Origin: Candidatus Micrarchaeota archaeon
GTDB taxonomy: Archaea; Micrarchaeota; Micrarchaeia; Micrarchaeales; CABMGC01
Assembly (NCBI GenBank): GCA_021797995.1
Contig: JAJZYR010000001.1
Coordinates: 79,342-143,341, forward strand
Length of the DNA stretch: 64,000 nt
Direction of reading: 5' to 3'
Shown here: positions 12,521 through 57,183 of the stretch, in pieces
Layout of the letters: every line of letters starts with the position of its first letter
Position numbering within the stretch: the stretch's first letter is position 1
The notes under the pieces: generated by a model
Databases searched by the model: none
Told to the model about the DNA's origin: nothing
The model's input: only the letters and a program-made list of their open reading frames with translations
Program-made: the position numbers and the translations under genes

Positions 12521-12738
12521 GCTCCCGGTCCGATCTCCTGCTGCCTCTTGAGGCAGCTATAGGATAATGCGGATATGCAATATATATTCAATATGTTAGT
12601 ATCTTGTATCTTTATAGTATTTGTAGTGCCGCTGCTGCTTTAGTTGCGCTCCGACTTACGCATGGCTGCAAACCAGCGGCTAAGCAAAGCCTTCCCGCCC
12701 ACAAGCTTTTAATACATACACTGCAAGTGATAAACGGG

Positions 12739-14172
12739 ATGCCAATGAACAAGATATCGATGCTGCTCTCAGTTGTCGCGGTAGTGGTTGTAGTGGTAGC
12801 TGCTGTGCTTCTGCTGTTTGCTCCGGGGCGCACTGCCCCATACACAGGTGCAGGCGGGAACTTCACTAGTGGTGCAGGGCAGTCGTATGCGCTAGCCTTC
12901 AGCCTTACTGACCCTCCGCAGGTGCCTCCCGGAACCAACGCGCTGGTAATTTCATACTCATCTGTGCAGGCGCATGAAGCCGGCTCAGGAGGCGGTGCGT
13001 GGATAAACGGCACGGGCAACGGGACGCTGAACCTGATGGCGCTTGTAAACAGCAGCCAGGTGATAGCAGGGGCGAACGTGCCCGCAAACGCATCAATAAA
13101 TCTCGTGAGATTTTACATCAGCTCCGCCTATATAACGATAAACGGCATATCGTACAATGTCACGGTGCCGAGCGGCGAGATAACCGCATCGCTTACCGGG
13201 AGCGCGAGGATAAACGGCAGCTCCTCGGCACTTATAGACCTCTCGCCCACTGTAGCGGCCATATATACGCAGAATTCCACCGTCTTTGTGCTGGTGCCTT
13301 CGGTAAAGGCCGTGATAGTCCCTGGGGAGGGCTCCGGAAGCGCCATTGGCTCTAAGGCCGGGCTTACATCCAGGGATAAGGCGGAGCTTGAAGCGGCAAG
13401 CCCTAACATTACAGTATCTGCATCGTCATTGTCGGCTTCAGGCAACGCCACCAGCTTCTCGGTGACGGTAAAGAACAATGCGAACTCGAACGTGATTATC
13501 CGGCATGTCACGCTCTTAGGCAATATCTCAGTATACGTGATCCCGGAGCTTGGAGTGAACGGGAATGCAGGCGCGAATGCGTCAGCAGCATCGCACGGCT
13601 CTGCTGGTGCATCCGGAGTGGATGTGGCCGCAGGGTCAGATGGCCATGATAATCATACTGGAATTGGAGGCACCGCCAGTGGCCTTGGAGTAAACGCCAC
13701 GGCAGGGGTGCAGTCACATGGCGGCTCCTCTGGACCCGGCGTGGAGCAGAATGCCTCTGCAAACGCCAATGGCTCTGCGGAGAATGCAGGAAACGGGCAG
13801 GCAAGAAGGGAAACCGAGCGCGGAATCGGCGTGGTGCTCCCTGTAAGTGCGAACCTCACCGCGAACGCCACCCTTGAAGCTGATGTACACGGACTTGTTG
13901 ATACCGGACTGAATATCGAGTCGATAAGGGCCATAACGTTTGCTGTGTCTGCCAATGGCACGCTTACGGTGCCTTCTTCAGAGCACGATCTTGAAGGAGG
14001 AGGCTATGCCCTTGGCGCCGGGAGTTCGGTAACCTTCAGCTTCAGCGGCAGCATCGGCTTCGGCAACGGGCACATCAAGGCCAACGTGGTGCCTGGAGAC
14101 GCATACGCCATATCGGTAAGGGGAGAGGAGGGCGCAAAGGCCTCTGCCAACGTGACTGCGCTTTCCGGATAA
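12739..14172 (+). CDS. membrane-anchored, sequon-rich extracellular protein (DUF4382-like N-domain, tentative)
   Basis: ATG 12739 (MPMNKISMLLSVVAVVVVVVAAVLLLF signal anchor) has cttttaatac about 27 nt upstream. Many N-x-S/T sequons and a central G/A/S/N low-complexity tract. The LTDPP...VPSGE pattern resembles DUF4382. Confidence 0.7.
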   Translation: MPMNKISMLLSVVAVVVVVVAAVLLLFAPGRTAPYTGAGGNFTSGAGQSYALAFSLTDPPQVPPGTNALVISYSSVQAHEAGSGGGAWINGTGNGTLNLMALVNSSQVIAGANVPANASINLVRFYISSAYITINGISYNVTVPSGEITASLTGSARINGSSSALIDLSPTVAAIYTQNSTVFVLVPSVKAVIVPGEGSGSAIGSKAGLTSRDKAELEAASPNITVSASSLSASGNATSFSVTVKNNANSNVIIRHVTLLGNISVYVIPELGVNGNAGANASAASHGSAGASGVDVAAGSDGHDNHTGIGGTASGLGVNATAGVQSHGGSSGPGVEQNASANANGSAENAGNGQARRETERGIGVVLPVSANLTANATLEADVHGLVDTGLNIESIRAITFAVSANGTLTVPSSEHDLEGGGYALGAGSSVTFSFSGSIGFGNGHIKANVVPGDAYAISVRGEEGAKASANVTALSG

Positions 14173-25765: not shown

Positions 25766-27598
25766 CTATACGTTGAGTCTTACCTCAGGCATTATGTGCA
25801 GCGACTTTATCTCATCGAGCAGTATCTTGAAGGCATAGCTTATCTCGACCTCTGCAAAAGAATTTGAGCCGCACAGCGGGCATATCGTAACCCTCTTTAT
25901 CCTATCGTAGTAGCCGATGTCCCCGCACTCCTTGCATATGAGAACTTCCGCCTTGTCAGACTGGTCAAGGAGCCTCTCCTTCAGGAGCAGGCTTGCGCCG
26001 TAGCCTATAAGCGCATCGCGCTCCATCTCCCCGAACCTAAGTGCGCCCTGCCTGGCCTTGCCTTCCGTAGGCTGGTGGGTGAGTATCTGGACCTTGCCCC
26101 TGCTCCTCACCTGTATCTTGTTGCTTACCATGTGGTAAAGCCTGTTGTAGTATACCACGCCGGTAAATATCCCTGCCTTGAACGGCTTGCCCGTCATTCC
26201 ATCATACAGTGTCTCCTCGCCGTTCTTGTCGAAACCGTATTTCTCAAGTATCTTACCATACCCTTCTATCCTTGCCGAGCCCTTTTCCGTGAAAGCCGTA
26301 CCGTCGACAATGTGGCCGCCTACCGCTCCGGCCTTTCCAGCAAGCTCCTCGAGCAGATGGCCGAAGGTGAGCCTTGTCGGGATGGAGTGCGGATTGAGGA
26401 GCAGGTCAGGCACAATGCCTTCTGCCGTGAATGGCATGTCCTCTTGCGGCACTACCATCGCAATGACTCCCTTCTGCCCGTGTCTGCTTGCAAACTTATC
26501 CCCCTTCTCCGGGATTCTCAGGCTCCTTACCCTTACCTTTACTATCTTTGTGGCTCCCGTAGACTCCGTGAAGATCACGCTGTCAACGCTGCCTGTCTCT
26601 CCGGTCTTCAGCACCGATGAGTCGTCACGCATCTTCTCCTCAAGGCCTCCAGCGCCTATGCTCTCCTCAAGGAATCTCGGCGGAGCGACCTTTCCGATAA
26701 GCGCATCGCCCTCTACAACCTTCATCTCAGGCTCTATTATCCCATCGTCTCCGAGCTTCGAATATGCATGCTCGCCCATGTATCCTTCGGCCGTAGGCTG
26801 CGGAATCTTGAACTTGTCCTTCTGCCCTCCCGGATACCTCCTCTCCTCATCCACATACGTCTTGTAGAATATGCTTCTTCCTAGGCCCCTGTCAACCGCC
26901 GACTTGTTGACCACTATGGCGTCTGCCATGTTGTATCCGTAGTAAGTGGACAAAGCCACCACGAAATTCTGGCCGCTCGGATGGTGCTTTATGTTTGCCC
27001 CGTCATATGCTACCGTAGTCACTATTGGCGCCTGCGGATAGAAGAGCAGGTAACCTCTCGAGTCGAATCTCAGATTGAAGTTTGACGCATAAAGCCCCTC
27101 GGCCTGCTTGGTGAAGTTTGCAAGCATGGCGTGCCTGGCTATGTTATTGTGCTCCGGGAACGGCGAGGTATTGACGGTAAAGCCGAAGATCGATGCAACG
27201 TCTATCTCCATGTGCGTTGTCTTGTCTGTGATGTCCTCTTCGTTGAAGGCGACGAGCGCGTTCTCCTCCTCTTCAGCGTCAAGATATTCTAGTATCCCAT
27301 TTCTAAGCAGCGAATTGAAGTCGAGCTCGCGTTTCTTTACCTTCTCCACGATCTCCGGCGTCATCTTCGGCTTCATATGCTCCACGATGATGTACGGCTT
27401 CCTTATCCTGCCCCTGTCCGTGTTTATGTTTATCACGTTCAGGCTCTTTATGAACGCTATATTTGTCTCTCCCGAGATGAGCCCCTTCCTCCGCGCGGCC
27501 CTTATCTCGCTTACATACGCGTCAGGATCCGCAATGTGGCCTATGACCCTGCCGTTAAGGTACAGATAGCATCTCGATTCATCTTCCTTAGCCAACAT
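25766..27598 (-). CDS. rpoB1: DNA-directed RNA polymerase subunit B' (C-terminal half of split B)
   Basis: GDKFASRHGQKG motif and C-terminal CKECG...CPLCG zinc ribbon. ATG 27598 (MLAKEDESRCY) lies 7 nt after the rpoB'' stop. The longer track ORF overlaps rpoB'' out of frame. Confidence 0.9.
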   Translation of the reverse strand: MLAKEDESRCYLYLNGRVIGHIADPDAYVSEIRAARRKGLISGETNIAFIKSLNVININTDRGRIRKPYIIVEHMKPKMTPEIVEKVKKRELDFNSLLRNGILEYLDAEEEENALVAFNEEDITDKTTHMEIDVASIFGFTVNTSPFPEHNNIARHAMLANFTKQAEGLYASNFNLRFDSRGYLLFYPQAPIVTTVAYDGANIKHHPSGQNFVVALSTYYGYNMADAIVVNKSAVDRGLGRSIFYKTYVDEERRYPGGQKDKFKIPQPTAEGYMGEHAYSKLGDDGIIEPEMKVVEGDALIGKVAPPRFLEESIGAGGLEEKMRDDSSVLKTGETGSVDSVIFTESTGATKIVKVRVRSLRIPEKGDKFASRHGQKGVIAMVVPQEDMPFTAEGIVPDLLLNPHSIPTRLTFGHLLEELAGKAGAVGGHIVDGTAFTEKGSARIEGYGKILEKYGFDKNGEETLYDGMTGKPFKAGIFTGVVYYNRLYHMVSNKIQVRSRGKVQILTHQPTEGKARQGALRFGEMERDALIGYGASLLLKERLLDQSDKAEVLICKECGDIGYYDRIKRVTICPLCGSNSFAEVEISYAFKILLDEIKSLHIMPEVRLNV

Positions 27599-27605
27599 AC
27601 CACCT

Positions 27606-29081
27606 TCAGACCTGCTCGGCCTTGTGCAATTCATTGAGCTTCTGCTCGACCTGCGCCTCGTCGGCCCCCACCGTGACCTTTGACATGATTGCAAGATACT
27701 TCGTAAGCCCCACTTCCTGGCCCTCAGGGGTCTCGGACGGGCAGATCTTGCCCCACTGGGTCCCATGCACGTCCCTTGCGCGGAAGTGCGGATGTTTCTT
27801 CGCAAGCGGGGACTTTACCCTCCTGAGGTGCGTGTACGAGCTTATGAGATTCGTGCGATCAAGGACCTGCGATACCCCTGTCTGGCCTGCTACCCACGTC
27901 CCGGTCCCCATCGCATATGCAATTTTCTCGGTAAGCGTATCAGGGTTTATTATCGACTGTATGGAGAGCTTCCTGCCCCTCGCGCTCGTCCTCTCTATCT
28001 GATATTTGACCTCTTTTACGAAGAACCTGAAGGCATATGCAAAGAGCTCCTCCATCAGGTCCCCGGCAAACTTTACCCTCTTGTTGGCGTAATGATCCTT
28101 GTCGTCCTGCCTTGCGAGCTTGTTCCCTATAATTGTAGCCTTGCGCGCCATCTGTATCAGGTACTTGCCCTTTTCAATCCTGTCCTCGCTTCCGCTGCCT
28201 ATATGCGGCAGGAGATAGTTGTCGAGCTGCATCTCGGCGCGCTTCTCCTGGTACTTGCTTGCCTGCCCTGGCGCAGCCATCTTTCCAAGCTCCAGGAGCG
28301 CATCCTTTGGGGTAATATCCTTCGTATCGCTTATCTCGATGTTGAGGAGCATGTCATTCTTGAAAGGATGAAGGTCCTGGGCATAGGCGAGTATCTCGCC
28401 CATCTGCATGCCAAGCGCCCTGAGCAGCATTATCAGGTCGAGGCTCTTGCCTGTAGTAGGGAAGTCAACGCTGAATATGCCATTCTGGTTTCTTGAGACG
28501 ACACATCGCGCCCTGAAGCCAGGGGTGGTGGAGAAGACACGGCTCTTTACCTCCTTTCCGTCAGACTCCCTGGTGGTAATTATCCTGTTCGGGGCGACAT
28601 CCTCGAGCCCTATGAGCACGCGCTCCACCCCCTTGAGTATGAAGTAGCCTCCCGGATCGTCGGGATCCTCGCCGCTCTCAAGAAGCTGGCTTCTTGCCAT
28701 GGTCCTTGTGTTGCAGAGATTGCTCTTTATCATAATGGGCATCTCACCGACAAATACCTCCCCGTATGCCGCAGTCTTCTCAATGCCCCTTATAATCGGG
28801 ACCACTTCTATGAAGATCGGCGTGGCATAGGTGAGGTTTCTCAGCCGCGCCTCGTTTGGCAGTATGCCCCTCCTCGATCCGTCAGACTCGATGATGGAGA
28901 CCCTGTCAAGCCTTATGTTCCCGAGTTTCAGCGCAAATCCCTCCACGCTCGGCTCGATGAGGTTCTGCCTGCTTACCACCTTCTGTATGCTGCTGTCAAG
29001 GAAGCGGTTAAAACTCTCAGTCTGGTGCTGCACAAGGGATACCGAATTAAGGTAGGATTCCAATAGACCATATTGTCGCAT
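27606..29081 (-). CDS. rpoB2: DNA-directed RNA polymerase subunit B'' (N-terminal half of split B)
   Basis: 491 aa colinear with RNAP second-largest-subunit N-terminal regions. Located between rpoH and rpoB'. Confidence 0.9.
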   Translation of the reverse strand: MRQYGLLESYLNSVSLVQHQTESFNRFLDSSIQKVVSRQNLIEPSVEGFALKLGNIRLDRVSIIESDGSRRGILPNEARLRNLTYATPIFIEVVPIIRGIEKTAAYGEVFVGEMPIMIKSNLCNTRTMARSQLLESGEDPDDPGGYFILKGVERVLIGLEDVAPNRIITTRESDGKEVKSRVFSTTPGFRARCVVSRNQNGIFSVDFPTTGKSLDLIMLLRALGMQMGEILAYAQDLHPFKNDMLLNIEISDTKDITPKDALLELGKMAAPGQASKYQEKRAEMQLDNYLLPHIGSGSEDRIEKGKYLIQMARKATIIGNKLARQDDKDHYANKRVKFAGDLMEELFAYAFRFFVKEVKYQIERTSARGRKLSIQSIINPDTLTEKIAYAMGTGTWVAGQTGVSQVLDRTNLISSYTHLRRVKSPLAKKHPHFRARDVHGTQWGKICPSETPEGQEVGLTKYLAIMSKVTVGADEAQVEQKLNELHKAEQV

Positions 29082-36482: not shown

Positions 36483-36584
36483 GGGCTCGTAGCGCAGCAG
36501 TAGCGCGCATCGTTCGCAAGAAGCCTCTAAAAAAGGCTTCATCGAAAGACGATGAGGTCGCGGGTGCGATTCCCGCCGAGTCCA
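36483..36584 (+). tRNA. tRNA-Ala (anticodon CGC) with 30-nt intron
   Basis: Acceptor GGGCTCG/CGAGTCC with G3:U70. D arm GCGC-AGCAGTA-GCGC. Anticodon stem CATCG/CGATG with loop TTCGCA|A. Intron 36519-36548 sits at position 37/38 and contains the hairpin GAAGCCT-N7-AGGCTTC. T arm GCGGG-TGCGATT-CCCGC has a non-canonical loop. Discriminator A. Confidence 0.8.
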
Positions 36585-36675: not shown

Positions 36676-37896
36676 ATGATACTGAAGGAAACACTTAGGC
36701 AGATAGTCAAAGCTCAGAGGAAAGACTTAGAATCGTTCAGCTACGGAGTAGAAAGGGAAGAATTAGGTGAGATAAAACTCAATATGCATTACGCATTGAT
36801 ACTATCAGGTATAAGACGATGTGGTAAGAGTACTCTACTTCACCAATTGCTTAAAAAACTTCCAAATTTCTATTATCTAAACTTTGAGGACACACGGCTA
36901 GACAGCTTTCAAGTTGAGGATTTCGAAAAGTTAGATGAAATCTTCAAGGAAGATTACAGTGAATCCGAATACTATCTTTTCGATGAAATACAGAATATTG
37001 ATAAATGGGAGCTTTTTGTAAGATCCAGACTTGACAAACAGAAGAAATTTATTATTACAGGCTCTAACGCTTCGCTTTTAAGTAAGGAGCTTGGTACTAG
37101 ACTCACAGGCAGGCACATCAACATGGAACTGTTTCCATTCTCCTTTATGGAGTCGCTTTCTATGACTAAGGTAAAGGCAAGCGCAACTTCATTCTCAGAA
37201 TACTTAAGAAGTGGAGGGTTTCCAGAATATCTGAGATATAAAAAACAAGAAATACTGCGCGAGTTATTAACAGACATAATACAAAGGGATATTGTAGTAA
37301 GGCACAAATTGCGCGATTCTAAAACAGTGAAGACACTTGCGTTATATCTGCTTAGTAACACGGGCAACGAGTTTTCGTATAATAACCTTAAGAAGATGTT
37401 CAATCTGGGGTCAGTGAATACCGTAATAGCATTTGTTTCTTATTTTGAGGACAGCTACCTTCTATTTACTGTGCCAAAGTTTGATTACTCGCTTAAGAAA
37501 CAGATAGTTAATGCAAAAAAAATATATTCTATAGATAATGGTCTTTCGACCTCAAATTCGGCTTCGTTCTCTTCAGATTTAGGAAGAATGTTAGAGAATT
37601 CTGTATTCTTGCATCTTCGTAGGAGATATAAAGAAATATTCTACTTCAAAGGAAAAAGAGAATGCGATTTCTTAGTAAAGGAGCAAAACAAGATAAAAAT
37701 GGCAATACAGGTCTCGTATGAGCTAAACGAAGGAAATAAACAGAGAGAATTTGACGGACTTCTTGAAGCTATAAAAGAGTTTGATTTGGTAGAAGGATTA
37801 ATACTTACATTTGACCAAGAAGACAAATTTGAGATTGAGGGAAAACACATAATAGCAAAACCGGTTTGGAAATGGATGCTAGAAAGCAATTTGTAA
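36676..37896 (+). CDS. AAA+ ATPase, COG1373 type (AAA_14 + DUF4143), paralog 1
   Basis: GIRRCGKST Walker A, YYLFDEIQNIDKWE Walker B, ITGSNASLLSKELGTRLTGRH, C-terminal ECDF...IQV. AT-rich. TATA catttaaata lies about 25 nt upstream. Confidence 0.85.
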   Translation: MILKETLRQIVKAQRKDLESFSYGVEREELGEIKLNMHYALILSGIRRCGKSTLLHQLLKKLPNFYYLNFEDTRLDSFQVEDFEKLDEIFKEDYSESEYYLFDEIQNIDKWELFVRSRLDKQKKFIITGSNASLLSKELGTRLTGRHINMELFPFSFMESLSMTKVKASATSFSEYLRSGGFPEYLRYKKQEILRELLTDIIQRDIVVRHKLRDSKTVKTLALYLLSNTGNEFSYNNLKKMFNLGSVNTVIAFVSYFEDSYLLFTVPKFDYSLKKQIVNAKKIYSIDNGLSTSNSASFSSDLGRMLENSVFLHLRRRYKEIFYFKGKRECDFLVKEQNKIKMAIQVSYELNEGNKQREFDGLLEAIKEFDLVEGLILTFDQEDKFEIEGKHIIAKPVWKWMLESNL

Positions 37897-41577: not shown

Positions 41578-42852
41578 ATGGATAAAGAAACGCTCAGGCT
41601 CGTAATAGTTGACCAGAGAAAGAGCCTCGAGGAAAAGCTTAGAGACAAAAACATAATCGTTCGGGATGCAAGTAAGTCGATAGTGCTGAAAGCCCCGACC
41701 GCCTTCATAGTCCTCGGGGTCAGGCGCTCTGGCAAGTCTACGCTTTCGGAGCAGTTGTTTATTGATGACAAATTTGGTTATATAAATTTTGATGACGAGA
41801 GGCTCCTAGGCGCAACTAGAGATGACCTTAATATCATACTTCAGATATTCTATGAGTTGTACGGATCCGATCTTGGCAATATAATACTCGATGAGATACA
41901 ATTAGTACCTGGTTGGGAACCGTTTGTGAGCAGGCTTAGGGATACAAAGAAGGTCATAGTCACTGGGTCTAGCTCTAAACTGCTTAGTGGCGAGCTTTCG
42001 ACCAGGCTGACAGGCAGGCACATCGACCTCCTGTTGTTTCCGTTCAGCTTTAATGAGTTTCTTACGTATAAACACTGGAACATACCTAAGGCTTTCTCTA
42101 CTACCGATAGGGCAGAGGTTGTAAGATTACTCGATGAGTATATAAGCTCTGGGGGATTCCCGGAGCAGTTTACCTTGGGCAGGCAGATAATCAGGAACAT
42201 TTACAATGATATAATAACAAAAGACATCGTAATAAGGCATAAGATAAAGTACATAGACGACTTAAGGCAGGCAGCGCGGTTTTTGGTATCAAACAGCTCA
42301 AAAGAATTTACATACTCTTCTCTTAAAGGTGTGACTGGGGCCAAGAGCATTATAACCCTATCGAATTGGGTGAGGTACCTTGAAGAGGCATATCTTATCT
42401 TCAAAATAGAGCGGTTTTCATATAAACTGAAGCAAACAATCCTCGCGCCTAAAAAGATATACTGCGTCGATGTTGGTATAATAAACGGGATAAGCCCGGA
42501 GCCGACGGGCAACAAAGGCAGATTGATGGAGAATACTGTTGCAATGGAACTGATAAAGGGCAGCAAAAATGTCGGATTTGAGGTATTTTACTGGAAGGAC
42601 CATCAAGGGAGGGAGGTAGATTTTATTATTAAGGACGACAGAAAGGTCGCTAAGCTAATCCAGGCTACTTATGCAACAAGCCGTGAAGCAATTGAAGATA
42701 GGGAAATAAAGTCGCTAGTAATAGCTTCTAACGAACTGAGATGCAATAATCTCTTCATAGTCACGTGGGATTATGAGGGCAGTATCGTGATAGAAGGAAA
42801 GAAAATAGCACTTGTTCCATTATGGAAGTGGCTGCTGAATAAAGAATTATGA
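41578..42852 (+). CDS. AAA+ ATPase, COG1373 type (AAA_14 + DUF4143), paralog 2
   Basis: GVRRSGKST, NIILDEIQLVPGWE, VTGSSSKLLSGELSTRLTGRH, C-terminal REVDF...IQA. TATA atttaaataac lies about 25 nt upstream. Confidence 0.85.
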   Translation: MDKETLRLVIVDQRKSLEEKLRDKNIIVRDASKSIVLKAPTAFIVLGVRRSGKSTLSEQLFIDDKFGYINFDDERLLGATRDDLNIILQIFYELYGSDLGNIILDEIQLVPGWEPFVSRLRDTKKVIVTGSSSKLLSGELSTRLTGRHIDLLLFPFSFNEFLTYKHWNIPKAFSTTDRAEVVRLLDEYISSGGFPEQFTLGRQIIRNIYNDIITKDIVIRHKIKYIDDLRQAARFLVSNSSKEFTYSSLKGVTGAKSIITLSNWVRYLEEAYLIFKIERFSYKLKQTILAPKKIYCVDVGIINGISPEPTGNKGRLMENTVAMELIKGSKNVGFEVFYWKDHQGREVDFIIKDDRKVAKLIQATYATSREAIEDREIKSLVIASNELRCNNLFIVTWDYEGSIVIEGKKIALVPLWKWLLNKEL

Positions 42853-44223: not shown

Positions 44224-45522
44224 ATGGCTAGCGTTGATGACTTTAAGTATGTGCTTACCCTCTGGAAAGAGATGGAGCTACCAGAAGTCATAGACAGGAA
44301 GATTACTTTAGATTTAGATGCAGACAAAATAATAGTCATTGCTGGTGTAAGACGCTCTGGTAAAACGAGTTTAATGTTTCAGCACATTAAAGAGCTAATG
44401 AGAAGAAAGGTGGGAAAGGACAATATTATTTATGTTAATTTTGAGAATGAGCGCCTAATAGCTACTAAAGCAACAGACATGGATAATCTCATGGTTGCGC
44501 ATTCGCAAATATTCACTCCTGTAGAAGGAATTGTGTATTTGTTCTTGGATGAGATCCAGAACGTAGAGAACTGGGATAAATGGATAAGGAAGATATATGA
44601 CACCAAGAAGTATAGAATTATAATAACCGGATCGTCATCGCAATTACTTAGCAGCGAGATAGCTACGGCGCTTGCAGGCAGGAACCTTTCTTATACTGTT
44701 TATCCATTCTCTTTTAGCGAGATACTGAAATCGAAGGGTATAACCACCGAAATTAGTAGCATAAAATTTTCTTCAAAGAAAGGCATTGTACTGAAAGCGC
44801 TAGATGAATTTCTCGAATATGGCTCTTTTCCAGAGGTCATACTTTCAAATGATGCTACAAGAAAAATGGATCTTTTATCAGCGTACTTTGATGCAATATT
44901 CTTTAGGGACATAATAAAGCGATATAACCTGAGGGAAATGGGTGCATTAAACATTTTCCTTAAGATACTTGCTAGTAACTATTCGACTTATTTCAGCTCA
45001 ACAAAAGCCCAGAATTATTTCAATAGTATGGATTTTAAGATTAGCAGGGTTACAATTCTTAACTTTTTAGAATACTCTAAATCTGTATTCTTTGCTGAAA
45101 CCTTGGAGCAATACTTAAAAAGTCCAAGAAAGCGATTTGCTAGACAGATAAAGAGTTATATTGTTGACATTGGGCTATCAAGATTGTTTACAGAGATAGA
45201 TAAAGGTAGGGCACTTGAAAATGCGGTGTTTATTGAGCTGCTTAGAAGGAGAAAGGCACCAGATAATATCTATTATCTGAAATTGAAATCAGGAAAGGAG
45301 ATTGACTTTATTATAGGTTGGAAACCTACTAAACTAATACAGGTATGCTATAAATTTTCTAGCAACGATGTAAAAAAAAGAGAAACTCTGGCACTAGTTG
45401 AAGCTGCAAAAACACTTAGACTTAAAGAAGGGACCATAATTACTTATGATTATAGCGGCAGTGAGGTTATAAATGGAATAAAGATATTACACACACCCTT
45501 CTGGGAATGGGCCCTTACGTAG
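44224..45522 (+). CDS. AAA+ ATPase, COG1373 type (AAA_14 + DUF4143), paralog 3
   Basis: GVRRSGKTS, YLFLDEIQNVENWD, ITGSSSQLLSSEIATALAGRN, C-terminal KEIDF...IQV. TATA gcatataaac lies about 25 nt upstream. Confidence 0.85.
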   Translation: MASVDDFKYVLTLWKEMELPEVIDRKITLDLDADKIIVIAGVRRSGKTSLMFQHIKELMRRKVGKDNIIYVNFENERLIATKATDMDNLMVAHSQIFTPVEGIVYLFLDEIQNVENWDKWIRKIYDTKKYRIIITGSSSQLLSSEIATALAGRNLSYTVYPFSFSEILKSKGITTEISSIKFSSKKGIVLKALDEFLEYGSFPEVILSNDATRKMDLLSAYFDAIFFRDIIKRYNLREMGALNIFLKILASNYSTYFSSTKAQNYFNSMDFKISRVTILNFLEYSKSVFFAETLEQYLKSPRKRFARQIKSYIVDIGLSRLFTEIDKGRALENAVFIELLRRRKAPDNIYYLKLKSGKEIDFIIGWKPTKLIQVCYKFSSNDVKKRETLALVEAAKTLRLKEGTIITYDYSGSEVINGIKILHTPFWEWALT

Positions 45523-47111: not shown

Positions 47112-47428
47112 ACCCCGCTGCTGCTTTTTAGCCATGCAGAAGGCATAGGCTGGCTGTGCACCAGGGCTTTTATCTGATGCCGGAAAATGGCGAATGCCTT
47201 AACAACATGCGAGTGGAAGAATGCGCCATTTATGGGCGGATGGGAGCAGACCGCATCGCACAGGAAGTATAATGCAGATAAATATATATAAGAGATGAGC
47301 AAAAAGGTATGCAATGGAACTGATAAGTGCCCACAAATTCAGAATTTGTCCGGAGCGCGGCGCCTTCATGCGGGAAGAAGTCACTAAATGCAGAGCCACA
47401 CTTTCAGATAGCCATTGAAGCTGAGATA

Positions 47429-48646
47429 ATGGGAAGGGTACTAATCGTAGGCGCAGGAGGAGTCGGGAGGGTGGTAGCCCACAAGTGCGCGCAGATTCCT
47501 GAAGTCTTTGCTGAGATTATGTTAGCCAGCCGCAACGTCTCAAAGTGCGAAGAAATAAAGAGGGAGATTAAGGCAAAGACTGGGCGGGAGATAAAGGTTG
47601 CTGAAGTGGACGCCGATGCTGTTCCAGAGCTTGTTGCATTGATAAAGAAGTTTAATCCGGAACTCGTCGTCAATGTTGCCCTTCCTTATCAGGATCTCAA
47701 GATAATGGATGCGTGCCTTGAAGCCGGTGTAAATTACCTTGATACTGCAAACTACGAATCACCAGATGTTGCGCATTTTGAGTACAGCCAGCAATGGGCT
47801 TACCGGGATAAATTCAGACGGAATGGACTTATGGCAGTCCTTGGGTGCGGATTTGATCCAGGAGTCTCAAATCTCTTCTGCTCGTACGCCCTAAAACACC
47901 TCTTTGACGAGATAAATTATGTCGATATTCTTGATTGCAATGCAGGAAGCCATGGGTATCCGTTTGCAACCAATTTCAATCCTGAGATAAACATTCGCGA
48001 GGTGACGCAGGCAGTAAGGTATTGGGTGGACGGGAAGGTGATAGAAACCCCTCCCATTCTTGATCCAAAGAGCATTCATTTCAGCTTTGACTATCCTGTT
48101 GTAGGGCCCATGGAGAGCTATCTCCTCTACCACGAGGAACTTGAGTCGCTTGCCGCGAACATAAAGGGCCTGAAGAGAATAAGGTTCTGGATGACCTTCT
48201 CTGAAAGTTACCTGACGCACCTCAGGGTCCTCCGGAATATCGGAATGACAAGAATTGACGGAGTCGATTATGAGGGCAAGAAGGTTGTTCCGCTCAAGTT
48301 TCTCAAGTTGTTGCTTCCTGATCCGGCCACGCTTGGGACAAATTATACCGGAAAGACGGTCATTGGGGATATAATAACAGGATTAAAGGACGGAAAGAGG
48401 AAGTCTGTTTACATTTACAACATATGCGACCATGCAGAGTCGTTCAGGGAGGTCGGAGCGCAGGCAGTCTCATATACTACAGGGGTGCCTGCAATGATCG
48501 GGGCCATGATGATGCTTAAGGGCATTTGGAAGGACGCAGGGGTATTCAACATAGAGCAGCTTGACCCTGATGCATTTATGGAGGCGCTGAACAGGTACGG
48601 GCTTCCGTGGCAGCAGGTTGAGTTCACGGGGAAACTGCCTGATTAG
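47429..48646 (+). CDS. carboxy(nor)spermidine dehydrogenase (saccharopine dehydrogenase family)
   Basis: MGRVLIVGAGGVGRVVAHKCAQ Rossmann N-terminus, about 405 aa, immediately upstream of an nspC-type decarboxylase. ATG 47429 is preferred over the track start. Confidence 0.7.
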   Translation: MGRVLIVGAGGVGRVVAHKCAQIPEVFAEIMLASRNVSKCEEIKREIKAKTGREIKVAEVDADAVPELVALIKKFNPELVVNVALPYQDLKIMDACLEAGVNYLDTANYESPDVAHFEYSQQWAYRDKFRRNGLMAVLGCGFDPGVSNLFCSYALKHLFDEINYVDILDCNAGSHGYPFATNFNPEINIREVTQAVRYWVDGKVIETPPILDPKSIHFSFDYPVVGPMESYLLYHEELESLAANIKGLKRIRFWMTFSESYLTHLRVLRNIGMTRIDGVDYEGKKVVPLKFLKLLLPDPATLGTNYTGKTVIGDIITGLKDGKRKSVYIYNICDHAESFREVGAQAVSYTTGVPAMIGAMMMLKGIWKDAGVFNIEQLDPDAFMEALNRYGLPWQQVEFTGKLPD

Positions 48647-48656
48647 GTGCGCGTTC

Positions 48657-49835
48657 ATGGAAGGCCAATCTTATGAAGCTGCCATTAAAGACTTCCCGGA
48701 TAAGATGACCAGCAGCGTAGAAACCCCCTGTTTTATCGTAAGCGAGGGAGCCCTGAGGAGAAACCTTGAGATTCTTGCCTCCGTAAAGAGACGCACTGGG
48801 GCGAAGGTCCTCCTTGCGCTGAAGGCATTTGCAATGTTCAGCACATTTCCCCTTATTAGGAAATATCTTGATGGCGTATGCGCAAGCGGGCCTATTGAGG
48901 CACAGCTCGGCTTCGAGGAGTTCGGAAAGGAGGTGCATACGTTTGCCCCCGCATATTCTGAAGCGGACATGAAGAGGGTGATAAGATACTCGGACACCAT
49001 AATCTTCAACTCCATTGCCCAGTGGAAGAGGCACCGCGGGGCGATAGAGAGGAGCGGGAAGAGGATTGAGGTAGGGCTGCGCATCAATCCAGGATACTCC
49101 GAGGTGGAAAACAGGCTGTATAATCCCTCAGCTCCGGGATCGCGGCTCGGCATGGCGGCTTCGGATCTTGATGGTGATGACCTTGACGGCATCGACGGAC
49201 TTCACTTCCATTCACTATGCGAGCAGAACTCCGATGTGCTCGTGCGTGTACTGAGGTCTTTCGAAAAGCGCTGCGGGAAATACATACCGCGCATGAAATG
49301 GATCAATTTCGGCGGTGGGCACCACATAACAAGGAAGGGCTACGACACTGGACTGCTCGTCAGGACGGTAAACGACTTCAGGAGGAGGTACGGGGTGCAG
49401 GTGAACATAGAACCGGGGGAGGCTGTGGTCCTGAATGCAGGGGTATTGGTAGCCACTGTACTTGACATCGTCCACAACAGAGTCGACACGGCAATCCTTG
49501 ATACGTCTGCTGAGGCACACATGCCTGATGTCCTTGCAGGCCCTTATCGCCCGGAGGTTATAGGGGCAGGAAGGCCTGGCATGCGGAAACACACTTACAG
49601 GCTTGGGGGCCTTACGTGTCTTGCCGGCGATGTTATTGGGGATTACTCATTTTCAAAGCCGCTCAAAACCGGGGATCGCATAGTATTTCTTGACATGGCA
49701 CATTATTCGATGGTCAAGACAACCACCTTTAACGGAATACGGCATCCGTCGCTTGCACTATACAATCCAGGCACGGGGAAGGTCAGGGTGGTAAAGAAAT
49801 TTGGGTATGATGCGTATAAGGAGAGGCTTTCCTGA
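48657..49835 (+). CDS. nspC: carboxy(nor)spermidine decarboxylase
   Basis: ALKAFAMFSTFPLIRKYLDGVCASGPIEAQLG matches the NspC-type PLP-lysine region of alanine racemase-fold decarboxylases. The start is ATG 48657 or 48705. Confidence 0.7.
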   Translation: MEGQSYEAAIKDFPDKMTSSVETPCFIVSEGALRRNLEILASVKRRTGAKVLLALKAFAMFSTFPLIRKYLDGVCASGPIEAQLGFEEFGKEVHTFAPAYSEADMKRVIRYSDTIIFNSIAQWKRHRGAIERSGKRIEVGLRINPGYSEVENRLYNPSAPGSRLGMAASDLDGDDLDGIDGLHFHSLCEQNSDVLVRVLRSFEKRCGKYIPRMKWINFGGGHHITRKGYDTGLLVRTVNDFRRRYGVQVNIEPGEAVVLNAGVLVATVLDIVHNRVDTAILDTSAEAHMPDVLAGPYRPEVIGAGRPGMRKHTYRLGGLTCLAGDVIGDYSFSKPLKTGDRIVFLDMAHYSMVKTTTFNGIRHPSLALYNPGTGKVRVVKKFGYDAYKERLS

Positions 49836-52296: not shown

Positions 52297-55200
52297 CTAA
52301 CCATTTCGGGGATTGCGGGAGCCGTGCCGTGCAAGCGGTCCCCTTCTCCTTTTGCCCTTCCTGCTCAGGTAGTATGCTGCAATCATTAGCAGGATTATTG
52401 CAACTGCAATAACAGCGATTACCGTGCTGGTTGCGGCCGGCGGCTTTGCCTGCGCAGGCGGCGCGGCCGCCTGGGAGGTCGTCTGTGCCGTAGAGACTGG
52501 CACCGTAGTGGTTTTCGGCGGCAGGGCCTGGAAGACGCCTATTATAGGGTCGCCTGGCGCAAGGCTGAAGGAGACTGTGCACGCTGACGCATTGGCAGTG
52601 GAAGTTATCGCAGCCCACGCACCGTTGAGCAGCTTGTATACGCTTATAGTTGGAGAGGGTGCACTGCACGGATAGTGAACCGTGATGTTGAGCGATGCGG
52701 AAGGCGAAGACACGTTGACTCCGAATGAGAGCAGCTTCTTGTATCCCGTCAGGTTGGGTGTCGATGCCGTGTCGTTCGCAAGCGACACATTTGAAGTGAA
52801 AGGGACGTTTGACGCAGTATAGACAAGTATGAGCGCATTCCCGTTCTCGAAGTTGATGTCGAGCGGGCTGTTGCTGGATATGTAAGGTATAAGGCCATTG
52901 AATGACGGCCCTGTTACGTTTATGATACGCAGGGCGTTGGTGGAGAGGTAGAAGCTGACCGAGGCATTGTGGAGTATGGGTGTGTACTGTATGCTGTTCA
53001 GCATGGCGTAGCAGCTGCCCTGGCCTGAGGCGCCTATCTGCACAGGATTGCCGAGCGTGAGCACCTTTAGCGCGTTGTTTACGCTGATGCCTGTGGCGTT
53101 TGGACTGATGTAGTTGTCCGTCACCGTGAATGCCTCGCCGCAGAGCGTGATGCTGAAGGTATTTAGCTGGGCAATGCCGTTGACGATGTAGCCGTTAGGG
53201 ATAGTGGATATCGAAGGCTTCTGCACCCCGCCACCGCCGCCGGTTGCCATGCCTGACGAGCCTCCGGTTCCGTAGTATATCGTAGTCGTCGATGGCGCAG
53301 GAGGACTTGGATTTGGAATCGAGAACTGCGTGCCTGGATCCGTACTGCCTACAACAGTGTTTGCGCCCCATAGGCCATATACGGTATCGTTAGTGAGTCC
53401 TGTAGCAAGCAGGAGAGATGCAGGAGCCCTGCTGCCGAAGGAAGGAAGCTTGAGGAACGCCCTGTTATCCCCGTAGGTGGAGCTGTGGGTTATGTAGAGC
53501 ACGAGGGAGTTGTTCCTTCCCCCTCCGATAGTCGTATTTGCGCCAAGAGTCGGGGTAAGTATTAGGGTATTGGCTGAAGTGACGTTAACGAGGAGCGTTA
53601 TCTCGTTTATGGGCAGGGTCAGCGTGAAGGTGTTGTTGATAGTCGTGCTTGCACTCGGCGGGAGCAGCGACCAGTATCCCGTGTACGGAGGCTGACCGCC
53701 ACTGAAGAAGAGTGTTAGGAAGGTAGTCTTTCCTACATCGACAGTGGTGTTTGTTATAGAGACTGTTGCAGGGGAGATTGCGGGGAAGAACACAGAGCTG
53801 AAGATTCCGTTCGCGGTTTCCTGCGGAGTGCCTGCATCCTTTACTGATACCTTAACGAGGTTCGGGCCGGCAGAGGCTGTGACGGAGTTGAATGTGAAGG
53901 AGTTTGTCGTATCCTCTGAGACGCTGTTGTACGCTATCACATTCGTGGCCATGTAGTATGAGATTGCCATTGGCGTGATGGGCCCTATTGCACTGCCTCT
54001 GTCGGTGACGTTCGCTGCCATCTCTACTATCCCGTTGCCTGCGGAATTTATGTAATTCATGTTGTTTATGTTGGTGTTGGAAGAGGTAAAGGACCTGACG
54101 AACGTATATGCTGGGAACTGGCCCAGCCTCGTTGAGTTGGTCAGGTTTATCAGCATGAATGTGTTCGGGACGTTTGACTGCGCGTTGGCGATCTCGGGCA
54201 TGTTGTACGTGAAGTACGTGACCGAATTTGTTGGTATCGCGGAGCCCGGAACAAGCAGAGTATTGGTTGTAAGTATCAAATTGACCGGGATCCCGTTCTC
54301 GCCGGAGTACGTAACTAGGTTATTAGGCGCAATTGGCGTGTTGGCAGGCACCTCGCCAAGGAAGTTCCCGTTAGGCACGTTGTAGAGCAGCGTGGGGCCG
54401 TTGTACGTGTACTGTGCAAGCTGAATGTTGTTTGAGGGATCCTGCGAAGGCAGCACCCCGTTTGCGTTGATTGAGTCGTAGATGCTGATCCGCACGCCTG
54501 GTGCAGGTGGCGTTAGGCCATAGATCCATACTCCTGTAATGTTGTAGGCGAGGAACGTGGGCAATGAAGAAGGGCCTTGCATGAGGGCGGTGTTGGAGCT
54601 TGCAGGCAGCGCATTTATCCCATAGATCAGGAAGGACCGTACCTTCGAGCCATTCAGCCCGCCTCCCCACCCTGCGACAGCAACGATGAACGGGGGTGTG
54701 TACGCGCTCACGTAGTTCGCACTGATGCCAAGGTTGGTTATCGTTACCTCTGGATCTACAAGCTTTCTGGCTATGGCATTCTGTATCTGCGGCGAATTTG
54801 ATGTGAGCACCGTAGCAACGTTGAGCGTATTGGACTGCATGAGCGAGTATGTGTCAAGGTTGTAGATTACGCTGTTCTGCACCCCGCCTGCGCCGGGCTG
54901 GTACTGCGCACCTACCGTATTGATTGTGAACATGCCGGTGTGGTTGCTCGATACGACGAAGAGGTTCGGAAGGAAGGCGGGCAGCACACTTTCGTTGCCT
55001 CCGGCAACCGCAAGCACATTGCCTGTAGACATTGCATTGAAGGCAATGCCATTCCACGCGTAAGGAGTCACTGTAAGCGTGTTTCCTGGATTCTGATATT
55101 CGAACATCGGGTTCGGAGGCGTTCTGCTGCTTGGACTTTGCGGCTGCGGCATCTGAAACGGAGGAACTAGGGAAAACTGCATGAGGTCGTATCCCCCAAG

Positions 55201-57183
55201 TACACTTCCTGCAAACCAGTTGTATGTATATGAGTTCGGTGCAGGGCCAGGGGTCCCTCCAATTGGCATTATGTTGCCAGTAAAGGCCTTGCCTTGCTGA
55301 AGTATTGGCCCCTGGCCCTGCGGGAACTGCGCTATCCCAAATGCGAGCCCGTTGTTCACGTTTACGTTTACGCTGAACGGCGAGTTAAATATGTATGGCG
55401 AGGAGGTGCTGATGTCGTTGGCTACTGCATTGAGCGTGTACGCTCCCGAAACGCTCGGTGTGAAGAGGAGTGAGGTAGGGGTGCACTGCGCTGTGGATGT
55501 GATCCCGTTAACCGAAATGTAGCCCGGCTTAAGGATGTTGACATCGAATAGGTCTGTCCCTGCGCATGGATAGCCTCCAGCTACAATCACGTTTACCGTC
55601 AGGGAGGTGCTCTGCCCCACCCCAATAACAGGATTGGATGGCTGTGAGATCGTAACGGCTGGCTGCAGGTTAATCGTGAGCGTGTTCGAAACGGACAGGG
55701 TATTTGCGCCTGTACTGTCGTATATAAGGGCATTGAATGTCCATACGCCCGCTATGGTATTCGGAGGCACTGTGGTTCCGAATGGATAACCTTCTGCTGC
55801 ATTCTGTAATATATTAAGGTGCAGGTCGTTGACAGGAGAGGAGGTGTAGAACATGTTCACGTTTGACGGAATGGCATAATAGACGCTGTTGGATACCATG
55901 CCGTTGTATCCGCCTATGCAGACTATCGCACCAGGGAAGACGCAGCTCATGTTCTCTGTTGCGACCGGATACGGCACCGTGTCAAAAAAGCTTCCTGCAC
56001 CGCCATTCTGCGGATTGACGAATGTATAGTTTGCCATTGAGAGGGGTACCGACGGAGCAGAGGCATACCCTCCGATGCAATATATGCCTACTCCGTTTGA
56101 CTGGAAGGCAACGCAGCTCGTGCCGCCTTTATAGGAGCCGCCAAACGCACCGGATGATCCAGAAATGGAGGACCAGGATATTCCCGTCGGGCCGGGAGTG
56201 CCCTCTGCATAAGCGCCATTTGGTCCGATGCAATGGAACATGCCTCCGGTCGGAGCCTGGTCGCAGTGGGTGGCACCTGACCATGCCAGCGAGTTTGCCT
56301 GCGTCCATGCGCCTATGCCTCCTGAATTCGGCAGTATGTTTGCGTAGTAAACCGCATTGGTAGGGATGCCAATGGCATTTCCGTCTAGGGTGTTTGTCGT
56401 GGTTCCTCCAAAGCAGTAGATGATTCCAGAAGCGGCGCCGCAGCTTGTGTTGGCAATGAAGAGAGGGTAGCTGTTTGTAGATGCCCATGAGCTTATCACA
56501 TTCCCAGAGACGGTTGCGAAGGTGACTATATTTGCGTATGCCGAATGCCCTGCGTATGATAGAGTAAGACCGTATGGGTTGTATCCCCCTACGCAATAGA
56601 TTGTGTTTGAGGGCATAATGCAGCCTGTGCCTATTGTATTGGTCATGAATGCGTTTGCAGACGGCACCCAGGCGCCAATCCCGTTTGCGCCGTAGTTATT
56701 CACTGGAGCGGCAAAGGCGTTGTAGACATAGTTGTCGCTTATGCCGTTGAACCCGTAGCCTGCCATGCAGTAGATGTACCCTGCGCCGGGATTCGAGACG
56801 CAGCTCTCCGCCTCTATGTTTGAGGGGTATGCGTTTGTCGCAACCCATGTATCGAGCGCAGCTGGAACTGTGCCGGGATTTGATGTCTCTGGATTGCCGC
56901 CGCCGATATTGGCTAAGCCTGAAGATGCGGGGGCGGTAATAATCTCGTTGAATGAGTAAGGAGGGATGCCATTGCTTACTATAAAGCTCTGCGCTGCAGT
57001 GAGCTGCGGTACGTCGATGAGCGAGTTTGTCAGTATCTCTGGACAGGGAGATGCAGTCAGGATATTGCCAGGACCTGTGCCGCAGACTCCTGTGGCATTG
57101 AGCGGTGCAATATAGATAAATGCTGCCGCAAGGATTGCCAGGAAAAGTGCCAGGCCCGACAGGCGGTTGCCCATAATTCCCAC
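52297..57183 (-). CDS. giant surface protein: signal peptide, six-bladed Kelch-like propeller, beta-rich repeats, Thr/Pro linker, C-terminal TM anchor
   Basis: 1628 aa. N-terminal LALFLAILAAAFIYIAP. Six IYC(I/V/F)GGY-type blades, about aa 120-440 (nt 55863-56826). Dense N-x-S/T sequons and very few charged residues. The C-terminus reads PPKTTTVP...VIAVIAVAIILLMIAAYYLSRKGKRRRG. The start is GTG 57183 or ATG 57174. Confidence 0.8.
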   Translation of the reverse strand: MGIMGNRLSGLALFLAILAAAFIYIAPLNATGVCGTGPGNILTASPCPEILTNSLIDVPQLTAAQSFIVSNGIPPYSFNEIITAPASSGLANIGGGNPETSNPGTVPAALDTWVATNAYPSNIEAESCVSNPGAGYIYCMAGYGFNGISDNYVYNAFAAPVNNYGANGIGAWVPSANAFMTNTIGTGCIMPSNTIYCVGGYNPYGLTLSYAGHSAYANIVTFATVSGNVISSWASTNSYPLFIANTSCGAASGIIYCFGGTTTNTLDGNAIGIPTNAVYYANILPNSGGIGAWTQANSLAWSGATHCDQAPTGGMFHCIGPNGAYAEGTPGPTGISWSSISGSSGAFGGSYKGGTSCVAFQSNGVGIYCIGGYASAPSVPLSMANYTFVNPQNGGAGSFFDTVPYPVATENMSCVFPGAIVCIGGYNGMVSNSVYYAIPSNVNMFYTSSPVNDLHLNILQNAAEGYPFGTTVPPNTIAGVWTFNALIYDSTGANTLSVSNTLTINLQPAVTISQPSNPVIGVGQSTSLTVNVIVAGGYPCAGTDLFDVNILKPGYISVNGITSTAQCTPTSLLFTPSVSGAYTLNAVANDISTSSPYIFNSPFSVNVNVNNGLAFGIAQFPQGQGPILQQGKAFTGNIMPIGGTPGPAPNSYTYNWFAGSVLGGYDLMQFSLVPPFQMPQPQSPSSRTPPNPMFEYQNPGNTLTVTPYAWNGIAFNAMSTGNVLAVAGGNESVLPAFLPNLFVVSSNHTGMFTINTVGAQYQPGAGGVQNSVIYNLDTYSLMQSNTLNVATVLTSNSPQIQNAIARKLVDPEVTITNLGISANYVSAYTPPFIVAVAGWGGGLNGSKVRSFLIYGINALPASSNTALMQGPSSLPTFLAYNITGVWIYGLTPPAPGVRISIYDSINANGVLPSQDPSNNIQLAQYTYNGPTLLYNVPNGNFLGEVPANTPIAPNNLVTYSGENGIPVNLILTTNTLLVPGSAIPTNSVTYFTYNMPEIANAQSNVPNTFMLINLTNSTRLGQFPAYTFVRSFTSSNTNINNMNYINSAGNGIVEMAANVTDRGSAIGPITPMAISYYMATNVIAYNSVSEDTTNSFTFNSVTASAGPNLVKVSVKDAGTPQETANGIFSSVFFPAISPATVSITNTTVDVGKTTFLTLFFSGGQPPYTGYWSLLPPSASTTINNTFTLTLPINEITLLVNVTSANTLILTPTLGANTTIGGGRNNSLVLYITHSSTYGDNRAFLKLPSFGSRAPASLLLATGLTNDTVYGLWGANTVVGSTDPGTQFSIPNPSPPAPSTTTIYYGTGGSSGMATGGGGGVQKPSISTIPNGYIVNGIAQLNTFSITLCGEAFTVTDNYISPNATGISVNNALKVLTLGNPVQIGASGQGSCYAMLNSIQYTPILHNASVSFYLSTNALRIINVTGPSFNGLIPYISSNSPLDINFENGNALILVYTASNVPFTSNVSLANDTASTPNLTGYKKLLSFGVNVSSPSASLNITVHYPCSAPSPTISVYKLLNGAWAAITSTANASACTVSFSLAPGDPIIGVFQALPPKTTTVPVSTAQTTSQAAAPPAQAKPPAATSTVIAVIAVAIILLMIAAYYLSRKGKRRRGPLARHGSRNPRNG

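Follow-up and report, generated by a model that had tools for sequence, protein, structure and literature searches.

A putative membrane-anchored paralogue of Micrarchaeota S-layer proteins with a predicted Kelch propeller as one of a set of exchangeable heads

The stretch of DNA analyzed here, hereafter the window, spans 64,000 nucleotides (nt) of contig JAJZYR010000001.1 (assembly GCA_021797995.1, Candidatus Micrarchaeota archaeon, positions 79,342 to 143,341) and encodes on its minus strand, at 52297..57183, a giant and nearly uncharged protein that we refer to as the Kelch-head protein. We read it as a membrane-anchored paralogue of surface-layer (S-layer) proteins that displays an exchangeable binding head, and give this reading a probability of roughly 0.55. 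The reading combines a central core shared with S-layer proteins, relatives in which the same core is joined to different heads, a head predicted to fold as a six-bladed Kelch-type beta-propeller, and a C-terminal cassette followed by a transmembrane helix. The gene had been singled out by an earlier reading of the window from its letters alone (the original prediction). Relatives are identified below by P numbers, and genomes or contigs by L numbers.

A genome scan with the core, run on species representatives (a set that does not include the window's own genome), recovered three more distant relatives, in L007, L008, and L009, that are 1,034–1,077 amino acids (aa) long, have a signal peptide and no transmembrane helix, and pass both the Pfam S_layer_C model (PF05124; 56–61 bits against a cut-off of 23.9, with the match split between the two ends of the protein) and TIGR01564 "S-layer protein" (29–39 bits against 25). 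The central region of these proteins (aa ∼490–875) aligned with aa ∼657–1096 of the Kelch-head protein; a BLASTP alignment with the L007 S-layer protein covered 419 aa at 32% identity (E 1e-30), and hhalign of the anchored-family profile against the S-layer profile gave a probability of 99.9% (E 3.9e-33, 372 columns). Four motifs were common to the core and the S-layer proteins, specifically YNLDTY-x-L-x-QSN, PAPGV-x-IS-[IV]-Y, Y-x-GPT-[LV]-x-Y-x-VPN, and YFTYNMPEI. By these alignments, the core is derived from the central region of an S-layer protein, of which it is a paralogue, and the guess in the original prediction that the protein is S-layer-associated gained a concrete footing in this homology to canonical Micrarchaeota S-layer proteins. 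In the same scan, the L004–L006 genomes yielded only anchored family genes and the L007–L009 genomes only canonical S-layer genes, and none of the six yielded both kinds; the two may be mutually exclusive, as far as six incomplete metagenome-assembled genomes (MAGs) and two search patterns can tell. SLP_Mh, which dominates the envelope of "Ca. Micrarchaeum harzensis," has been placed in the TIGR01564 family; no clear S-layer anchor was described for it, and a second, transmembrane partner was speculated (Gfrerer et al., 10.1101/2021.04.28.441871). A preprint on lattice prediction assigned Micrarchaeota S-layer proteins to a hexagonal "MSTP-like beta-sandwich" type (10.1101/2024.05.28.596244).

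The core defines a family with exchangeable heads. It was 44–55% identical over its full length to P0019–P0025, and a search with aa 660–1480 returned five proteins with 43–49% identity over 72–100% of the query. When aa 446–1628 were searched by phmmer against 1.84 billion representative proteins, 293 matches were obtained, of which about ten span the core; the remainder cover the last ∼310 aa only. P0019, the organism-named relative, is from a Micrarchaeota MAG and carries a YncE/lactonase-type (YncE/YVTN) propeller right after its signal peptide; the heads of P0020–P0025 consist of immunoglobulin-like (Ig-like) domains only; and further members were located on Micrarchaeota contigs by the genome scan. 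Most family members are 1,018–1,197 aa long, with P0019 at 1,329 aa and the Kelch-head protein at 1,628 aa. The core ends in a beta-sandwich domain of the type that P0021 and P0023 have at their N-terminus, since positions 495–565 of the core hidden Markov model (HMM) matched P0021 aa 34–106 (E 5.7e-7) and P0023 aa 49–112. No solved structure in the PDB was matched by the core profile. The original prediction had described ∼1,100 aa of beta-type sequence behind the propeller; that description was incomplete, as the stretch consists of conserved modules, specifically probable Ig-like domains, core, and cassette. The features of the gene, in order from the N-terminus of the protein, were as follows.

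52297..57183, minus strand: whole open reading frame (ORF), 1,628 codons plus stop from a GTG, uninterrupted
57094..57174, minus strand: signal-peptide-like N-terminus, aa 4–30, MGNRLSGLALFLAILAAAFIYIAPLNA, read from the sequence, with equivalent N-termini in the family
56863..57045, minus strand: N-terminal half of a probable split Ig-like (PKD-like) domain, aa 47–107, aligning with the first half of the P0021 N-terminal domain
55843..56862, minus strand: predicted six-bladed Kelch-type beta-propeller, aa 108–447, from motifs, structure model, Foldseek, and family profile
55624..55842, minus strand: C-terminal half of this probable split domain, aa 448–520 (aa 468–532 align with P0021 aa 117–179)
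55264..55623, minus strand: probable second Ig-like domain, aa 521–640, with a Cys540–Cys567 pair, from BLAST matches to relatives
53308..55263, minus strand: conserved family core, aa 641–1292, free of Cys
53896..55098, minus strand: S-layer-homologous part of the core, aa 696–1096 by BLASTP and ∼657–1084 by hhalign
53317..53787, minus strand: beta-sandwich domain ending the core, aa 1133–1289
53227..53289, minus strand: Gly-rich hinge, aa 1299–1319, ...GTGGSSGMATGGGGG, read from the sequence
52522..53226, minus strand: C-terminal cassette of two beta domains, aa 1320–1554 (∼235 aa), with Cys1348–Cys1391 and Cys1506–Cys1535 pairs
52426..52527, minus strand: Thr/Pro/Ala-rich linker, aa 1553–1586, read from the sequence, with a Thr-rich stretch at this place in all family members
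52366..52425, minus strand: single transmembrane helix, aa 1587–1606, TVIAVIAVAIILLMIAAYYL, read from the sequence
52300..52365, minus strand: basic cytoplasmic tail, aa 1607–1628, SRKGKRRRGPLARHGSRNPRNG, with nine Lys/Arg in 22 residues

Evidence for the propeller came from motifs, modeling, and profile searches. The blade motif [hydrophobic]-x-C-x-G/A-G/P occurred at six sites (aa 137, 195, 255, 316, 367, and 420, spaced by 51–61 residues) and nowhere else in the Kelch-head protein. The original prediction had counted six repeats, each preceded by a W...YP segment; the six sites stood, but the lead-in was clear in three blades only, being complete in blades 1 and 3, reduced to YP without the Trp in blade 6, and degenerate in blades 2, 4, and 5. 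The pattern was cleaner in homologues of aa 108–440, which contained six-unit sets with a period of ∼50–55 aa and whose alignment gave the consensus W-x-S-T-N-x-Y-P...S-C-V...I-Y-C-V-G-G...V-Y-Y-A-P...G-x-W. An AlphaFold2 (AF2) model of aa 100–455, built from an eight-sequence alignment, reached a predicted template modeling score (pTM) of 0.77 and a mean predicted local distance difference test score (pLDDT) of 70.7, and was poorest at the degenerate blades 4 and 5. The top 50 matches of this model in a Foldseek search of the PDB (E ∼1e-12, target TM-scores mostly 0.6–0.77) were all Kelch-type and essentially all six-bladed, led by SAKe6 designs, KLHDC2, KLHDC3, KLHDC10, KLHL12, KLHL20, KEAP1, and LZTR1. 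The propeller-family profile matched KBTBD10, KLHL17, and KLHL12 in the PDB at E 1e-9 to 1e-8 (best 1.4e-9). Pfam gave a divided answer: Kelch_1 scored 13.2 bits on the Kelch-head protein against a cut-off of 20.1, whereas several homologues passed Pfam Kelch models, e.g., P0003 with PF24681 at 68.5 bits against a cut-off of 50. Thus, the repeats do model as a beta-propeller, and the model supports a closed six-bladed Kelch fold, in line with what had been proposed from the letters alone.

The invariant columns of the propeller alignment contained only Cys, Tyr, Gly, Trp, Ala, and Asn, with no conserved His, Asp, Glu, or Lys. On this basis the propeller is read as a putative binding scaffold, and a catalytic Kelch enzyme was considered and rejected because the alignment lacks conserved catalytic or metal-site residues. 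Each blade carries a pair of Cys in its first two strands, 7–11 residues apart in the Kelch-head protein and eight apart in the cleaner homologues; a two-residue turn would set the two Cys face to face, so that each blade is probably stapled by one disulfide across this hairpin.

The propeller appears to be inserted in the first Ig-like domain. In P0021 and P0023, the N-terminus is an unbroken beta domain of ∼130 aa with the pattern V-I-D-V-G-Q...G-x-x-P-Y-T-G-N-W...G-x-W-x-F-x-A-x-x-D. Against P0021, collinear BLAST matches were obtained on both sides of the propeller, aa 4–85 to aa 1–70 (E 1.6e-5) and aa 468–532 to aa 117–179 (E 0.04), and the two halves, when spliced, aligned with P0021 across the junction at 32% identity over 117 aa (E 3e-7). 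The motif G-x-W-x-F-x-A-x-x-x-D, which ends the intact domains of P0021, P0023, and P0003, is present in aa 448–520, and the flanked-propeller arrangement is visible in P0003 and P0006 too. Taken as a whole, the nesting is moderately supported by these alignments. A Cys34–Cys47 pair lies just ahead of the first Ig-like half. For the second Ig-like domain, BLAST with aa 475–660 matched P0003, P0004, and two relatives that bear an Ig_3 annotation, P0005 and P0007; a Pfam Ig-like model (HYDIN/VesB) matched the Kelch-head protein weakly (E 0.034), and P0003 had a K319L-like PKD match just below the cut-off.

At the other end, the Gly-rich hinge, whose position is taken by a poly-Gly run in P0019, P0020, P0026, and P0027, leads into a cassette that is far more widespread than the core. 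Among the 149 best of the 293 phmmer matches, from which all cassette totals are lower bounds, 145 carry the cassette, in 126 of them no more than 60 aa from the C-terminus. A hydrophobic stretch within the last 70 aa was found in 121 of the 145 cassette proteins, which range from 113 to 2,145 aa in length and have a median D/E/K/R content of 7.3%. Where the first Cys pair of the cassette is absent (two aligned members), both Cys are gone together. No Pfam or NCBIfam family corresponds to the cassette, save a sub-threshold match of NF041766 "choice-of-anchor U" to aa 1482–1546 of the Kelch-head protein (25.1 bits against a cut-off of 32, E 2.3e-5), directly ahead of the linker and transmembrane helix; this match occurred in one of seven cassette proteins scanned, and the cassette profile found nothing in the PDB. 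We read the cassette from its distribution as a putative lineage-wide surface-display module. Directly upstream of P0019, at L010 1915..7827 (plus strand), lies a gene for a 1,970-aa protein that has no Pfam domain and neither core nor Kelch repeats and carries the same cassette (E 2e-60).

The termini look like those of a secreted protein held at its C-terminus. A Sec-like N-terminus could be read from the sequence, in agreement with the signal peptide of the original prediction, and the Thr/Pro/Ala linker, single transmembrane helix, and basic tail that it named were all located. All 20 Cys of the Kelch-head protein, including two per blade, fall into ten consecutive local pairs, the pattern expected for extracellular disulfides, which we infer to be present. 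The signal peptide, paired Cys, single C-terminal helix, and positive-inside tail support a predicted type I surface topology. An archaeosortase-type sorting signal (PGF-CTERM and relatives) was rejected because the family alignments show no conserved motif before the transmembrane helix, which is followed by a tail of 22 aa; PGF-type models matched neither the Kelch-head protein nor the cassette proteins scanned. One distant cassette protein bears the Joint Genome Institute (JGI) name "PGF-pre-PGF domain-containing."

The ORF of 1,628 codons was found as originally predicted, with the minus strand, left unstated there, now added. An ATG at 57174, three codons inside the GTG-started frame, is the start used in public gene calls and probably the true one, giving a protein of 1,625 aa. 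A TATA-like element, TTTATTAATATT, lies ∼35–45 nt upstream of the gene. Gly, Ser, Asn, Thr, and Ala each make up ∼10% of the protein and Pro 8%. Asp, Glu, Lys, and Arg together account for 84 of 1,628 residues (5.2%), and 9 of the 37 Lys/Arg sit within the last 22 residues; in the probably cytoplasmic proteins encoded elsewhere in the window, these four residues make up ∼20–30% (∼25% in the neighbours), so the protein is charge-poor, as had been noted. Such charge depletion fits an acidic exterior and is common to the cassette-bearing proteins, which supports, on composition, the proposed adaptation to acid. The "dozens" of N-x-S/T sequons in the original prediction proved generous at 26, about two dozen (residue shuffles, 29.6 ± 4.6), but at 1.62 per 100 aa they are about five times as dense as in 18 further ORFs from the window (0.34), and 8 of the 13 sequons in the core were kept in at least five of seven homologues; conserved sites include N730, N881, N1016, N1145, N1216, and N1224. 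The protein may be heavily N-glycosylated.

Ten near-identical versions of the Kelch-head protein were found in independent assemblies, with 99.75–100% identity and one to four substitutions each. In the head region, substitutions were limited to aa 448 and 451 of one variant, just past the propeller; a hypervariable head was rejected, as the variants differ by one to four substitutions only. The gene is solitary, with a divergent GDPD gene upstream and convergent genes for LemA and a hypothetical protein downstream; its wider neighbours are GDPD, LemA, adenosine deaminase, and polyamine genes. Gene neighbourhoods differ among family members, and an operon context was rejected because the neighbours are not conserved across them. 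Direct Pfam and NCBIfam scans of the Kelch-head protein were nearly empty, phmmer of the whole protein against the PDB gave noise only, self-BLAST for internal repeats gave nothing usable, and a viral scan with the family core found no relatives.

As a working model, the protein would extend outward from the membrane in the order basic tail, transmembrane helix, Thr/Pro/Ala spacer, cassette, Gly hinge, core, Ig-like domains, and Kelch tip. The S-layer-like core would position it at or in the S-layer by docking or insertion, the spacer, cassette, and hinge would bridge the distance to the membrane, and the transmembrane anchor would tie it there. The outward head would act as a ligand-binding module, being a Kelch propeller here and, in paralogues, a YncE/YVTN propeller or Ig-like domains alone, and its likeliest ligand would be the envelope of a host cell or the biofilm matrix. 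Surface proteins of strain Mia14 that combine PKD domains with Kelch or YVTN propellers have been proposed to act in host contact (Golyshina et al., 2017; PMC5498576), and cultured Micrarchaeota attach to their hosts (PMC8784108). Host or matrix adhesion, suggested by these two precedents, is accordingly the likeliest single role for the head, although we would hold it only tentatively, at slightly less than even odds. The broader proposition that the family is both a tether between S-layer and membrane, with the core in or on the lattice and an anchor of its own, and a host-recognition device, with the head reaching out past the layer and choosing the host envelope, appears doubtful.

Several observations weigh against the reading of the Kelch-head protein as an anchored S-layer paralogue with a binding head. 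The protein matches none of PF05123, PF05124, and TIGR01564; the AF2 model of the core (eight-sequence alignment) failed, with a pLDDT of 35.5; and the close core family is rare, at about ten clusters, and therefore cannot be a general anchor of Micrarchaeota. No substitution fell inside the propeller blades among the ten variants, and a head that does not vary between strains offers no hint of an arms race with a host. The nested-domain arrangement relies on weak pairwise alignments: HMM matches to the two Ig halves were individually insignificant, and a Pfam scan of the spliced halves found nothing, which keeps the support for nesting at moderate. The sequon count, not being above that of the shuffles, follows from the Asn/Ser/Thr-rich composition. 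Finally, the DnaK encoded in the window has the same sequence as MCL5419759.1, a protein filed by NCBI under "Candidatus Marsarchaeota archaeon," a free-living lineage.

Other explanations were weighed on the same data. The Kelch-head protein could be the main, self-anchored S-layer protein of its sub-lineage, with the outer domain swapped for Ig and Kelch domains. The homology of the core to the central region of S-layer proteins speaks for this as well, and so do the lengths of most family members, which are about those of the canonical proteins, the strong TATA-like element upstream of the gene, and the split between three genomes that yielded only anchored genes and three that yielded only canonical ones. 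We nevertheless consider it unlikely: the N- and C-terminal S_layer domains are absent, heads that differ wholly between close relatives would be unusual for a lattice protein, the cassette is also attached to 145 or more unrelated passenger proteins, the neighbour of P0019 among them, and six incomplete MAGs screened with two search patterns make too thin a basis for exclusivity. A generic extracellular protein for binding or catalysis, such as polysaccharide capture or oxidation, with no role at the S-layer or in host contact, would be in keeping with the general use of Kelch and YncE propellers as enzyme and ligand-binding scaffolds and with gene neighbours that point to neither envelope nor symbiosis and change from one family member to another. 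This proposal is rather improbable, given a propeller without conserved His, Asp, Glu, or Lys for a catalytic or metal site, the absence of enzyme families from the Pfam and NCBIfam scans, and a core that is clearly of S-layer-protein origin. That the ORF is spurious or of low complexity, with repeats that merely reflect composition, might be suspected from its strong compositional bias and the almost empty direct Pfam and NCBIfam searches; it is refuted by the conservation data, specifically the ten near-identical copies and the 44–55% identity over 650 aa, with the adequate propeller model and the paired Cys also against it, and we assign it a negligible probability.

The Marsarchaeota label on the identical DnaK is probably an error or the product of a chimeric bin. 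All named relatives of the Kelch-head protein are from Micrarchaeota/Micrarchaeia MAGs, and on contig L005 of a Micrarchaeota MAG (GC 50%; 51% here) a family member shares its neighbourhood with genes for GrpE and for a DnaK that is 77% identical. The gene for RNA polymerase subunit B (rpoB) is split in the window (25766..29081, minus strand) into B'' (491 aa, Rpb2 domains 1–3) and B' (domains 4–7), and split rpoB is not known as a feature of Thermoproteota. A gene for the small subunit (DP1) of PolD lies ∼10 kb upstream of the Kelch-head gene, on the same contig in near-identical strains; Marsarchaeota, like Crenarchaeota, have been reported to lack PolD (PMC7544198). The label was therefore rejected on PolD DP1, split RpoB, and synteny with L005, and the organism is quite probably an acidophilic Micrarchaeon (DPANN).

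Elsewhere in the window, a charge-poor DUF4382 protein of 522 aa with an N-terminal hydrophobic anchor (12604..14172, plus strand; 9% D/E/K/R, 26% Asn/Ser/Thr) has a 44% identical homologue beside the family member on the Micrarchaeota contig L005. A 102-nt transfer RNA (tRNA) gene called by Rfam at 36483..36584 (plus strand), and not reported by ARAGORN, probably encodes an archaeal tRNA with an intron. Within 9 kb, three paralogous genes encode AAA_14/DUF4143 ATPases (36676..37896, 41578..42852, and 44224..45522, plus strand); a mobile or defence-type island is suggested by the middle gene, which has a 79% identical counterpart on L008, an unrelated Micrarchaeota contig. At 47327..49835 (plus strand), a saccharopine-dehydrogenase-like gene adjoins an Orn/DAP/Arg-decarboxylase gene (Pfam labels), a combination that is typical where polyamines are made by way of carboxy(nor)spermidine.

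Micrarchaeota live with acidophilic hosts in partnerships that are obligate or nearly so, and how they grip and choose a host is at issue; the Kelch-head protein is a candidate both for the tie between S-layer and membrane and for the grip on the host. By-products of the analysis are a surface-display cassette without a Pfam family, present on at least 145 representative clusters, and a core of ∼650 aa that defeats current structure prediction. The Kelch propeller, which is nearly uncharged, predicted to be extracellular, and probably disulfide-stapled, may also be of interest as an acid-stable scaffold. The combination of propeller and PKD domains in surface proteins of archaea, including Micrarchaeota, is already known. 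In the literature searched, we did not find descriptions of the paralogy between the core and S-layer proteins, of this core with its own transmembrane anchor and interchangeable heads, of the widespread C-terminal cassette, or of the nested, Cys-stapled Kelch domain.

Among known systems, SLP_Mh (Micr_00292, TIGR01564/PF05123-PF05124), from the same phylum, is likewise secreted, rich in Asn/Ser/Thr, charge-poor, and rich in sequons. The Kelch-head protein shares with this family a central region of ∼400 aa at 32% identity, as judged on the MAG members L007–L009 and not on SLP_Mh itself, but lacks the S_layer end domains and adds the cassette, transmembrane helix, basic tail, probable Ig-like domains, and predicted Kelch propeller. 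Surface-layer proteins of Methanosarcina mazei reportedly pair a seven-bladed YVTN beta-propeller with PKD domains (Jing et al., 2002, Structure 10:1453, as cited in PMC5498576); they are similar in joining a propeller to Ig/PKD domains and differ in propeller family, in phylum, and in not coming from an acidophile, and they are not known to be related in sequence to the Kelch-head protein. Closer in lifestyle is "Ca. Mancarchaeum acidiphilum" Mia14, also an acidophilic Micrarchaeon, whose strain-specific giant secreted proteins MIA14_0152, MIA14_0331, MIA14_0793, and MIA14_0946 have PKD-like domains alongside Kelch or YVTN propellers. The likeness to these proteins is by description only; a CARDB-like module reported for them was not detected in the Kelch-head protein, and their description mentions neither S-layer core homology nor a shared C-terminal cassette (PMC5498576).

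More distant comparisons concern the anchor and the head separately. As a functional analogy only, which Gfrerer et al. raised as well, SlaB of the Sulfolobales is a glycosylated, beta-rich link between the S-layer of an acidophile and its membrane, with a transmembrane anchor at its C-terminus. It forms the stalk that holds its partner, the lattice protein SlaA, to the membrane. SlaB differs in having a coiled coil and no propeller and in being universal in its order, whereas the family described here is rare, and no homology between the two was detected. For the head, the eukaryotic Kelch domains of KLHL12, KLHL20, KEAP1, and KLHDC2 share the predicted fold and the repeat signature (the GG doublet, the spaced Tyr, and the Trp). 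These are cytosolic ubiquitin-ligase adaptors, whereas the propeller of the Kelch-head protein would be extracellular, is almost uncharged, carries two Cys in each blade, and seems to be nested within another domain.

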